Of a stretch of DNA of 6,121 bases, positions 2,591 through 6,121 are shown one piece after another. Positions within the stretch are counted from its first letter, which is position 1. Each line of letters starts with the position of its first letter. The DNA comes from a virus: IMG/VR virus record IMGVR_UViG_3300045988_001885, positions 1-6,121 of that record; one strand, given 5' to 3'. The translations under genes and the position numbers were made by a program. The notes beneath the pieces are model-generated. The model searched no databases. It saw only the letters and a list, made by a program, of their open reading frames with translations, and was not told where the DNA came from.

Positions 2591-2608
2591 CATACTTCAG
2601 GACTAGAA

Positions 2609-2655
2609 GCCCATCGCGGCGCTTGAGCGATATACACCCGCCGCCCGCGTAGGGC
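2609..2655 (+). other. Imperfect GC-rich hairpin A.
   Basis: GCCC(2609-2612) pairs with GGGC(2652-2655). A 2x2 internal mismatch follows (AT/TA). CGCGG(2615-2619) then pairs with CCGCG(2645-2649). GCGGCG(2616-2621) with CGCCGC(2639-2644) is an alternative inner register. Confidence 0.6.
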
Positions 2656-2667
2656 CTGATATAATAT

Positions 2668-2713
2668 GGAGCGGAGCGACTTCCTTAAAGAAGCGTTCCG
2701 CTTCGGTATTTTA
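2668..2713 (+). terminator. Long hairpin B (15 bp with one bulged A and a 6-nt loop) followed by GGTATTTTA. Candidate intrinsic terminator for the VP4-VP1-VP2 transcript.
   Basis: GGAGCGGAGCG-A-CTTC (2668-2683) pairs with GAAGCGTTCCGCTTC (2690-2704) around the loop CTTAAA. Two pairs are G-T wobbles (2669-2703 and 2676-2696). A T-rich run TATTTT starts 3 nt after the stem. It lies 78 nt downstream of the VP2 stop. Confidence 0.4.
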
Positions 2714-2729
2714 GCACAGAGTGCGCAAA

Positions 2730-2751
2730 GGCAGGTTCTATCTGACCTGCC
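2730..2751 (+). other. Hairpin D: 7-bp stem with an 8-nt loop.
   Basis: GGCAGGT(2730-2736) tctatctg ACCTGCC(2745-2751). GCAC(2714-2717) can pair either with GTGC(2721-2724) or with GTGC(2752-2755); the second option would extend this helix. Confidence 0.6.
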
Positions 2752-2756
2752 GTGCC

Positions 2757-2772
2757 TATACACCCCTGTATA
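2757..2772 (+). other. Hairpin E: TATACA-CCCC-TGTATA.
   Basis: A perfect 6-bp inverted repeat with a 4-nt C loop. Its 5' arm plus loop (TATACACCC) is a direct repeat of 2631-2639. Confidence 0.6.
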
Positions 2773-2773
2773 C

Positions 2774-2822
2774 ATCCACTTCTCTAGATCTATTGGTAGT
2801 GGATCTAGGATCTGTTAATTAA
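2774..2822 (+). other. Cluster of overlapping inverted repeats and palindromes (hairpin F and alternatives).
   Basis: ATCCACT(2774-2780) pairs with AGTGGAT(2798-2804). CTAGATC(2784-2790) pairs with GATCTAG(2802-2808); the two helices share 2802-2804, so they are mutually exclusive. TAGATCTA(2785-2792) is a self-complementary 8-mer. GGATC occurs at 2801-2805 and 2808-2812, and there are three GATC sites within 26 nt. TTAATTAA palindrome at 2815-2822. Confidence 0.6.
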
Positions 2823-2846
2823 GCGAAGCCCCTAGTTGTGTCCGAA

Positions 2847-2880
2847 GGAAAACCCGAGTTATCATCTCGGTTTCTCTCTT
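2847..2880 (+). terminator. Hairpin G followed by a pyrimidine run; weak second terminator candidate.
   Basis: CCGAG(2854-2858) ttatcat CTCGG(2866-2870). With C2853 bulged, the stem extends through AAA(2850-2852)/TTT(2871-2873) and G2848-C2874. TCTCTCTT follows. The U-tract is poor, hence the low confidence. Confidence 0.25.
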
Positions 2881-2941
2881 CCCTCGTCCATAAACGCACA
2901 ACTCACACTCCATCACAAATGGTCCTCTCCCCACAATTTCT

Positions 2942-2982
2942 AAAAAAAAATTTTGGAAATACAAAAAAAACTTATACCTTTG
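2942..2982 (+). promoter_or_regulatory. Bacteroidota-type (sigma-ABfr-like) promoter: -33 TTTG (2952-2955), a 19-nt spacer, and -7 TAnnTTTG (TACCTTTG, 2975-2982), embedded in phased A-tracts.
   Basis: Exact match to both published Bacteroides/Flavobacterium consensus elements (TTTG and TAnnTTTG), with 19 nt between them. It lies in the only sizeable intergenic region and points at the downstream gene block. An AT-rich leader of ~45 nt without a Shine-Dalgarno sequence precedes ATG 3033, as is typical for Bacteroidota. A9 (2942-2950) and A8 (2963-2970) start 21 nt apart. Confidence 0.55.
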
Positions 2983-3032
2983 CCCCATGTAGAAGTTACA
3001 ACTATTATTAACCTTTTAAAATTATTACAATT

Positions 3033-3227
3033 ATGCAGAAATTTATTATTTCAGTTAAAGACAAAAATACTGGCCGTGATGTTATTTCGCCTTATATTGT
3101 CAATTCTCTCGATGGTCTTGGAACTTATTCTGAGCGAGTTTCTCCGTTGGGTTTTGTTGTTATTGTGGATTCGATTAAAGAGGAAAATGATTTTGTTGAA
3201 CTTAAAACTCAAAGTGATGAAAAGTAA
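3033..3227 (+). CDS. Hypothetical 64-aa protein (orphan); first gene after the promoter.
   Basis: ATG-initiated ORF with the same T-ending codon bias as the structural genes. It is net acidic with no hydrophobic segment, and I recognise no motif. Confidence 0.6.
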   Translation: MQKFIISVKDKNTGRDVISPYIVNSLDGLGTYSERVSPLGFVVIVDSIKEENDFVELKTQSDEK

Positions 3228-5306: not shown

Positions 5307-6121
5307 ATGAGTGATTTTAATCCCTTAGACCGAGCTAAGATTCCTACCCATCGGTCTTCCTTCGACTTAAGTTCGAAAAAGTTATTCACTGCTAAGGTTG
5401 GTGAAATCTTGCCATGCTATTGGCAGATTGCTATTCCTGATACTAAGTATCGTATTTCTTCGGATTGGTTTACTCGTACTGTTCCGGTAAATACTGCTGC
5501 TTATACCCGTATTAAGGAGTATTATGATTTTTATGCTGTGCCGTTACGTCTGATTTCCCGTGCGCTTCCGCAGGCGTTTACTCAGATGACTGATTATATG
5601 ACTAGTGCATCTAGTTCTACTACGAACTCGTCTGCGCTTACTTCTGTTCCTAATGTTTCTTTGAATGCTTTAAATATGTTTTTGCAGACGGCTAACGCTG
5701 GAGACCAATCTAACACTCGTGATGACGCAGGCCTCCCTATTGTTTATGGTTCTTGTAAGTTGCTTGATTTGCTTGGTTACGGTTCTATGATTGATTCTAA
5801 AAATAGTGGTAAGGCTTCTATTACGCAAAAGTATCTAGGTGTTGATGGCCTTGGTGATGCTGACAACCCTTTGGTTTATCAGACTTCACAGACTGTCAAT
5901 GCTCTTCCGTTCCTTGCTTATCAGAAGATTTATTATGATTTCTTCAGCAATAGCCAATGGGAAAAGCACACAGCCTACGCCTATAATGTAGACTATTGGT
6001 CCGGAACTGGTCAAATTGGATTGGTTACTGATATGATCCAACTTCGCTATGCTAACTATCCGAAAGACTATTTCATGGGTATGTTGCCTAATTCCCAGTA
6101 TGGTTCGGTAGCTGTTTTGCC
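5307..6121 (+). CDS. VP1: Microviridae major capsid protein (VP1), N-terminal part. It runs off the window end and continues at base 1. Bases 6067-6121 duplicate 1-55.
   Basis: The ATG at 5307 lies 19 nt after the VP4 stop, and the frame stays open to the window end. The N-terminus MSDFNPLDRAKIPTHRSSFDLSSKKLFTAKVGEILPCYWQIAIPDTKYRISSDWFTRTVPVNTAAYTRIKEYYDFYAVPLRLI fits the Microviridae VP1 pattern: FDLS, then T...G.L.P, then P-D, then R..P, then Y-F-VP-R. Confidence 0.9.
   Translation, partial: MSDFNPLDRAKIPTHRSSFDLSSKKLFTAKVGEILPCYWQIAIPDTKYRISSDWFTRTVPVNTAAYTRIKEYYDFYAVPLRLISRALPQAFTQMTDYMTSASSSTTNSSALTSVPNVSLNALNMFLQTANAGDQSNTRDDAGLPIVYGSCKLLDLLGYGSMIDSKNSGKASITQKYLGVDGLGDADNPLVYQTSQTVNALPFLAYQKIYYDFFSNSQWEKHTAYAYNVDYWSGTGQIGLVTDMIQLRYANYPKDYFMGMLPNSQYGSVAVL
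6067..6121. repeat. Terminal redundancy, copy 2 (identical to 1-55); an assembly or linearisation overlap of a circular genome.
   Basis: Exact 55/55 identity with the window start. Confidence 0.95.

Follow-up and report, generated by a model that had tools for sequence, protein, structure and literature searches.

A covarying, folded intergenic region of a gut Bacteroidales microvirus as a candidate complementary-strand origin

Introduction

What does a gene-free, hairpin-rich stretch do in an otherwise tightly packed microvirus genome? The question is raised by the window analysed here, the whole stretch of 6,121 nucleotides (nt) from the IMG/VR record IMGVR_UViG_3300045988_001885, whose identical ends (bases 1-55 and 6067-6121, 55 nt) show it to be a microvirus genome that is circular and has a length of 6,066 nt. 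Every gene of the window lies on the + strand, and a first-pass annotation, made from the letters alone, had rightly seen that these genes abut or overlap throughout, with positions 2591-3032 as the sole exception. For this gap it had proposed three hypotheses: (a) a structured RNA or 3' untranslated region (UTR) element, (b) a complementary-strand origin, or (c) an attachment or recombination site. As described below, the second is favoured, the first is possible and the third is not supported. To our knowledge, it is not known how the complementary strand is started in microviruses outside the phiX174/G4 group; such microviruses rank among the most abundant phages in the gut of mammals. Positions 2591-3032 are interpreted here, with moderate confidence, as the intergenic control region of a lytic-type gut Bacteroidales microvirus, in which a conserved core would be the complementary-strand origin and a 5' hairpin would double as a terminator.

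Fold and Covariation of the Element

The gap between the pilot gene VP2 and the next gene carries no gene, as had been proposed. Of 53 relatives, no more than 10 keep intact the open reading frames (ORFs) that the window has there and, in the alignment of these relatives, 306 of the 363 indel runs in 2591-3032 are not multiples of three, so that a protein-coding reading was rejected; the corresponding gap in GenBank relatives is mostly without annotation. Its described richness in GC was also seen, as positions 2591-2880 have a GC content of 0.50 compared to 0.406 in the genome, within the top 0.8% of 290-nt windows.

The structured element spans about 2595-2908. Using RNA parameters, its + strand folds better than shuffled sequences (z = -4.89), with z = -3.19 for the - strand, while DNA parameters give z = -4.99 and z = -4.84 for the + and - strands, respectively. 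The alignment of homologues (53 sequences) supports a model of 12 helices and 68 pairs, having 96.4% of its cells paired. Both partners have changed in 20 of these pairs (155 cells), a support that was reached by none of 500 shuffles, and slid controls were 24-49% paired. Regarding the seven stem-loops drawn previously, those at 2668-2704, 2714-2724, 2730-2751 and 2847-2875 show compensatory changes, the true extent of the last two being 2725-2755 and 2851-2873. The one at 2757-2772 is present, but optional among relatives and without covariation, and the one at 2774-2808 is indeed a hairpin, but a lineage-specific insertion. Finally, the stem-loop 2609-2655 had been wrongly closed: the helix 2609-2612/2652-2655 was dropped in favour of a pseudoknot, in which 2652-2655 pairs with 2643-2646, and 2613-2631 forms a separate hairpin. 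This H-type pseudoknot, the long-range helix 2834-2841/2896-2903 and the mini-hairpins 2823-2829 and 2842-2848 were all absent from the first-pass annotation. RNAalifold also draws a long-range pairing of 2668-2677 with 2823-2832, which involves near-invariant columns only.

The 3' core is organised around a three-way junction (Table 1). It comprises 22 pairs, 97.3% paired, 13 of them changed on both sides (60 sequences), and none of 500 shuffles matches it. The core is 77-96% identical to that of relatives, compared to whole-genome identities of 71-84% for the same relatives, and is therefore the best conserved among the segments compared. A covariance model built from it, named R1, scores the window at E = 1.6e-24. 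The columns of the spacer that follows are poorly conserved, except for the A run.

Upstream of the core, the 5' module (2595-2712) and the middle hairpins are also supported to different degrees. Ha, with which the element begins 5 nt past the VP2 stop codon, is paired in 97% of the cells, with one-sided changes only (G-T). Hc is 100% paired, its pair 2616-2628 being found as GC (42), AU (5) and CG (4), and a mutual information analysis agrees. The pseudoknot was revealed by variants from an unbiased second search, for which the 3' part served as anchor. Across 26 distinct sequences its pairing is 100%, compared to 14-54% in slid controls, with the pair types CG/UA/GC at 2639-2649, CG/AU/GC at 2644-2654 and CG/UA at 2646-2652; its loops are 2642 and 2650-2651, where positions 2642 and 2650 vary freely. 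He is 95% paired, with GC (43) and AU (6) at 2674-2698, and Hf is 100% paired, with AU (40), GC (13) and zero G-T at 2716-2722. Hg is 92.6% paired and has three pairs with changes on both sides; several relatives lack the 3' arm of Hh.

Some other observations were made along this part of the element. The region of He can form an alternative short hairpin, 2690-2695/2699-2704 (GAAGCG-TTC-CGCTTC), and positions 2691 and 2703 covary (GC 68, AT 36), which are partners in the short hairpin and not in He; either a structural switch or phylogenetic linkage could account for this. An exact direct repeat, TATACACCC, is found at 2631-2639 and 2757-2765, 126 nt apart. It is conserved in relatives, stands, in each copy, directly 3' of a hairpin, and could be a protein-binding site. 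The insertion at 2774-2808, of about 35 nt and palindromic (CTAGATC...GATCTAG), is found in a subset of genomes including MG945572, L012, L051, L058, L097 and L123, and may be a small mobile or duplicated hairpin.

Table 1. Coordinates of the element, its flanking signals and the genes of the window.
Feature	Position	Strand	Description
Ha	2595-2609, stem 2595-2597/2607-2609	+	Weak 3-base-pair (bp) hairpin, conserved loop GGACTA
Hc	2613-2631, stem 2613-2617/2627-2631	+	5 bp, 9-nt loop
Direct repeat TATACACCC, copy 1	2631-2639	+	Single-stranded, nearly invariant
H-type pseudoknot	2639-2655	+	S1 2639-2641/2647-2649; S2 2643-2646/2652-2655
He	2668-2712, stem 2668-2683/2690-2704	+	15 bp, contains GCGGAGC (2671-2677), then GGTATTTTA
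Hf	2714-2724	+	4 bp; loop of 3-4 nt: AGA, GGA, GTAG or GAAG
Hg	2725-2755	+	Interrupted hairpin, variable tip
Hh	2757-2772	+	A-T-rich, 5 bp, overlaps TATACACCC copy 2
Inserted hairpin	2774-2808, stem about 2783-2792/2798-2807	+	Most relatives without insertion (alignment gap block)
3' core	2816-2908	+	Three-way junction; GCGAAGC before it, invariant tail ACTCACAC after it
Mini-hairpin GCGAAGC	2823-2829	+	5' of junction
Hk	2834-2841/2896-2903	+	Long-range helix closing junction
Mini-hairpin CCGAAGG	2842-2848	+	Inside junction
Hm	2851-2858/2866-2873	+	Loop TTATCAT
Pyrimidine tract	2874-2885	+	Inside junction
Hn	2886-2887/2894-2895	+	Small hairpin in GTCCATAAACG
Variable spacer	2909-2951	+	Small hairpin 2910-2922; A9 tract 2942-2950 upstream of promoter
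Bacteroidetes-type promoter	2952-2982	+	TTTG (2952-2955), 19 nt, TACCTTTG (2975-2982)
Capsid gene	5307 wrapping round to 995	+	
151-amino-acid (aa) ORF		+	Between capsid and VP2
Pilot protein VP2 gene	Ends 2590	+	
64-aa gene	Starts 3033	+	
Short ORF		+	After 64-aa gene
M15 peptidase/endolysin gene		+	
Rep		+	559 aa, REP_ORF2-G2P family

Distribution and Host

The element is present in more than 130 microvirus genomes, always 3' of VP2. In GenBank, 34 microviruses sampled from dogs, humans and lemurs align over the region at 69-84% identity, and it is non-coding there too. In IMG/VR, a 17-nt signature gave 112 matches, of which 3 were discarded as chance matches on large contigs; the 109 true copies are all on microvirus-genome contigs, most of them of 5.1-6.9 kilobases (kb) and the longest of 9.4 kb, and additional variants came from the search anchored on the 3' part. 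Moreover, R1 finds the core in the distant viruses mar56, Dulem 265, bajarodmic 502, Dulem 232 and Dulem 220 (E from 1.5e-16 to 2e-4), all of which, except mar56, align to only 1-3% of the window. All five matches are on the + strand and fall in the non-coding gap 3' of the VP2 block; their stems are compensated, and the CCGAAGG mini-hairpin is kept. Meanwhile, the 5' module is missing from mar56 and from the contigs L130, L134, L135 and L138, and L128 retains He alone of this module.

The first-pass annotation had also considered a horizontal acquisition, which is not supported, as the core is common to distant microviruses and there are no plasmid or host-genome matches. PLSDB plasmids gave no match at E up to 1, and neither a 27-nt signature of the element nor a gene related to the capsid gene was found in 185,579 species genomes; a capture from the host was consequently rejected.

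The surroundings of the element differ among relatives. In mar56 (L124:3400-3800), unrelated sequence with long T-runs stands in place of the 5' module, and the short direct repeats TTCCCCACAGCGCAGC, GGAGTACGGAA, TCCGCAGGTGT and GCGTAGC are each found twice. Dulem viruses 254 and 255 (L005/L006, 60-300) and contig L135 have about 230 extra nt between VP2 and the element, including, in L005/L006, an annotated 50-aa ORF. Non-coding gaps of 380-600 nt follow the VP2 block in L150, L152 and L153 (Dulem 265, bajarodmic 502 and Dulem 263), two of which share the hairpins TGTCC-G(C/T)A-GGACA and GTCAAC-GAA-GTTGAC, which suggests a wider family of hairpin arrays. On the other side of the boundary, the 3' end of the VP2 gene (2531-2584) carries a 27-nt tandem duplication (2.0 copies, 96% match), repeating the peptide QGVGN(S/N)IGR immediately ahead of the stop codon; at least some relatives (e.g., L131) have a single copy.

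Regarding the host, a type I-C array of clustered regularly interspaced short palindromic repeats (CRISPR) was found on the IMG/VR contigs L146 (11814-13026) and L148, having 19 repeats of GTCACACCCTACGTGGGTGTGTGGATTGAAAC and 18 spacers. Twelve of the 18 spacers match this microvirus clade at three mismatches or fewer, four of them perfectly, with a TTC protospacer-adjacent motif in nearly all, and one (L146:12306-12339) targets the 3' end of the core domain. The identity of the Cas8c beside the array is 87% to a protein from an uncultured Bacteroides and 84% to the one from Parabacteroides distasonis, and the Bacteroidales host thus indicated agrees with the Bacteroidetes-type promoter described below.

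Loops and Wobble Pairs

Four observations, namely the loops, the wobble pairs, the terminators and the promoter, lean towards a fold that works as single-stranded DNA (ssDNA). The first concerns the mini-hairpin motif NCGNAGN' (C-GNA-G), which occurs at 9.5/kb in the + strand of the element, 0.59/kb in the rest of the genome and 0.10/kb in the - strand of the element (119 genomes), an enrichment of this triloop of about 16-fold. Three of the four such motifs in the window are inside the element (GCGGAGC, GCGAAGC and CCGAAGG), where DNA mini-hairpins of the GCGNAGC or GCGNNAGC type have closing pairs that covary. Of the hairpins with this cap (stems of 3-7 bp), six of seven in Dulem 265 and four of six in bajarodmic 502 lie in the non-coding gap. 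No GNRA or UNCG loop was found among the loops of the element. As described by Kimoto and Hirao, such mini-hairpins are present at the complementary-strand origins of G4, St-1 and alpha3, CCGAAGG belongs to the RSF1010 priming signal ssiA and GCGGAGC to the N4 virion-polymerase promoters, and the RNA versions are far less stable (PMC13037366).

The second observation concerns the wobble pairs, from which a specificity for the + sense had been deduced. The two cited wobbles, 2669-2703 and 2676-2696, are real, and all helices together have 181 G-T cells compared to 50 A-C cells; however, the signal is confined to He (89/760 cells), Ha (13/147) and Hg (21/527). In the nine remaining helices, G-T accounts for 3 of 1,954 cells and is not above A-C (5), even at pairs that switch between A-T and G-C. 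According to Golden et al., G-U is favoured in RNAs and G-T is neutral in the structures of ssDNA viruses (PMC6993869).

Terminators and Promoter

A simple scan found two terminator-like sites on the + strand of the element, at 2690-2704, followed by GGTATTTTAG, and at 2854-2870, followed by TTTCTCTCTT, with genome-wide calls at chance level. In L128, the retained He is followed by a T6 run. Because of its wobble tolerance, the GGTATTTTA tract 3' of it, the scan call at 2690-2704 and the T6 run of L128, He is read as a likely terminator, and its most likely role, together with the T-tract, would be to end a genome-length transcript. In other relatives, canonical terminators were called between the last upstream gene and the whole element (L149 and L152, bajarodmic 502) or stand in place of the 5' module (L130 and L134); in Dulem virus 243, a terminator-like hairpin is visible by eye upstream of the element and was not called by the scan.

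On the other side of the core, positions 2952-2982 are the only full match in the window to the Bacteroidetes-type promoter pattern, and both of its TTTG boxes are invariant. The consensus of the Bacteroidetes sigma-A promoter is TTTG, 19-21 nt, TAnnTTTG. This pattern occurs once or twice in most related loci, about 25-45 nt past the core where positions were compared (L012, L152 and L153), and a scan for sigma-70-type promoters gave matches at chance level only. As predicted from its sequence, the promoter would drive the 64-aa gene at 3033 and the subsequent genes. Taken together, the four observations put the core in the only stretch that probably escapes transcription. The complementary-strand origin is thus favoured by the DNA-type C-GNA-G mini-hairpins, by the near absence of G-T in most helices and by the position between terminator and promoter.

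Alternative Explanations

The fold may instead work as RNA: either the 3' UTR would be structured, or the end of the late transcript would be processed into a stable non-coding RNA. Such an RNA might shield the 3' end of the mRNA or have factors of the host or the phage as targets. An RNA function is considered unlikely, yet several points speak for it and weigh at the same time against the origin. As the mRNA is of the same sense as the packaged DNA, covariation cannot separate DNA from RNA; the fold is also well supported by RNA parameters, as given above. The H-type pseudoknot, which covaries perfectly, is a classic RNA feature, of which few natural ssDNA examples are known. He tolerates G-T (G-U in RNA) at three pairs, as an RNA helix would. 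In addition, the element begins right after the VP2 stop codon in the lineage of the window, with no separate terminator between, and therefore at least 2595-2704 must be transcribed. The origin reading has further points against it, namely that terminator-like calls across the window number 6, compared to 5.1 expected by chance, that the 5' module is dispensable in some natural variants, and that the element shares no sequence with the G4 or phiX174 origins, as seen by the blastn search described below.

An RNA role meets its own difficulties, namely the near absence of G-U in nine helices, the lack of GNRA and UNCG loops, with C-GNA-G triloops, weak in RNA, in their place, the canonical terminators ahead of the element or core in L149, L152, L130 and L134, and the lack of a promoter match upstream of the element. 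When the whole window was compared to Rfam with cmscan, no match was found in 2591-3032 at E up to 10, and ARAGORN found no transfer RNA or transfer-messenger RNA in the region. Thus, hypothesis (a) is possible mainly for the 5' part 2595-2712, which is probably upstream of the terminator hairpin, and 2595-2660 may have an RNA role. A combination of both natures, in which the late transcript would end in a new class of phage-encoded structured RNA, formed by the 5' module, and the 3' core would be a folded DNA, is judged somewhat less probable still than an RNA function of the fold.

It is rather improbable, to a further degree, that the element is the + strand (double-strand) origin, where Rep would nick a hairpin loop, e.g., the conserved TTATC of Hm, after its extrusion from the supercoiled replicative form. 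Such a + origin could replace a complementary-strand origin or exist beside it. Most helices are strictly Watson-Crick, with neither G-T nor A-C, as if both strands must pair, the Hm stem covaries with a conserved loop, and Rep belongs to the REP_ORF2-G2P family, whose Ff-phage relatives nick within their intergenic region. In phiX174, however, the + origin is inside the Rep gene; the Hm loop is altered in distant relatives, only one strand carries the GNA loops and the pyrimidine tract, and no known nick motif was recognised in the element. The matches to a phiX174-like nick motif, TTGATATT, lie in the peptidase gene at conserved codons and were dropped, because coding constraints explain them.

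There is little reason to believe that the region is a cluster of terminator hairpins only, stopping the genome-length transcript from circling. It does have two terminator-like sites on the + strand, at 2690-2704 and 2854-2870, natural variants put canonical terminators in place of the 5' module, and termination by hairpin clusters is reported (PMC8355165). However, terminators need neither the invariant loops and single-stranded tracts nor the pseudoknot nor a core better conserved than the genes, and the latter is downstream of a canonical terminator in L152, L149, L130 and L134, where it would be redundant as a terminator.

An attachment site for XerC/D-type integration, possibly as folded ssDNA as in CTXphi, can practically be set aside: although this is the only sizeable non-coding region of the genome and related Bacteroidetes proviruses without integrase use dif-like sites (PMC3091885), no match to the 28-bp bacterial dif consensus was found within three mismatches, every copy of the element is on a microvirus-genome contig, and the genomes searched hold neither an integrated copy nor a related capsid gene. 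Other roles at the ssDNA level take the probability that remains.

Proposed Mode of Action

For a complementary-strand origin with a terminator ahead of it, the region would work in three parts. In the first, the 5' module (2595-2712), He and its T-tract would end the genome-length transcript. The second, 2714-2908, would be largely untranscribed and contains the conserved core, which would fold in the incoming ssDNA and resist coating by single-stranded DNA-binding protein, while this protein coats the remaining + strand. A host priming enzyme, possibly DnaG primase, the PriA primosome or RNA polymerase, would then recognise the junction and the mini-hairpins, and the RNA primer would start on the adjacent conserved single-stranded tract, allowing complementary-strand synthesis to yield the replicative form. 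On this form, transcription from the promoter of the third part (2952-2982) would pass around the circle through every gene as far as He. Of this scheme, the fold with its conservation and covariation, the enriched motif, the flanking signals and the link to the host are observed, and the action as DNA, the priming of replication and the termination at He are inferred. A hairpin of this kind is expected to be required by microviruses to make their complementary strand (PMC9865509).

Comparison with Known Systems

The kind of element, a hairpin-based replication signal in ssDNA, is already known; this one is not homologous to described origins, and its architecture differs. The origin of G4 has roughly 100-140 nt, similar in size to the element. 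The DnaG-dependent complementary-strand origins of G4, St-1 and alpha3 are likewise a non-coding intergenic stretch on the + strand of a microvirus, with stable hairpins that include a DNA mini-hairpin of the GCG(N)NAGC type (PMC13037366). They differ in having three tandem hairpins, compared to a three-way junction and an upstream pseudoknot module here, and the host here belongs to Bacteroidales. Homology to these origins was not found, as a distant-mode blastn against 50,697 phage records returned only this clade.

The primosome assembly site of phiX174 is a single hairpin of about 55 nt. This site (n'/PriA, in the F-G intergenic region) is also a hairpin of the packaged strand needed to start the complementary strand (PMC9865509). 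It has no homology to the element, which lies instead after the pilot gene and before the promoter.

In the filamentous Ff phages (M13, f1 and fd), the cis-acting replication signals are brought together in a hairpin-dense non-coding region, which has a terminator on one side and a promoter on the other. The organisation is similar, with one such region in a tightly packed ssDNA phage genome, but the virus family is different. In Ff, RNA polymerase recognises the minus origin as a promoter mimic, and the packaging signal and the + origin are further parts of the region.

Plasmid signals such as single-strand origins of the ssoA type and RSF1010 ssiA/ssiB are similarly strand-specific folded ssDNA, and ssiA has the same heptamer, CCGAAGG, at a hairpin tip (PMC13037366). 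Unlike them, the element has no match in PLSDB, and the primase that reads ssiA is encoded by the plasmid, while no primase gene is present in this phage. Lastly, host enzymes act on attP(+) of CTXphi, which is likewise ssDNA of a small phage in folded form (PMC3091885); compared to it and to the dif-like sites of Bacteroidetes proviruses, no dif-like sequence and no integrated copies are found here.

Significance

No replication signal is known to have been described for this group of gut phages, and none was found in the papers searched. If the 5' module works as RNA and the 3' core as DNA, one strand of the intergenic region would be read twice, as RNA and as ssDNA; should the pseudoknot function as DNA, this would make it an unusual recognition element among natural folded ssDNAs. 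R1 serves as a marker that finds the core where nucleotide similarity is otherwise gone. The core itself offers a bounded cis-signal of about 95 nt, backed by covariation and common to divergent Bacteroidales microviruses, which would be usable for replicons and vectors.

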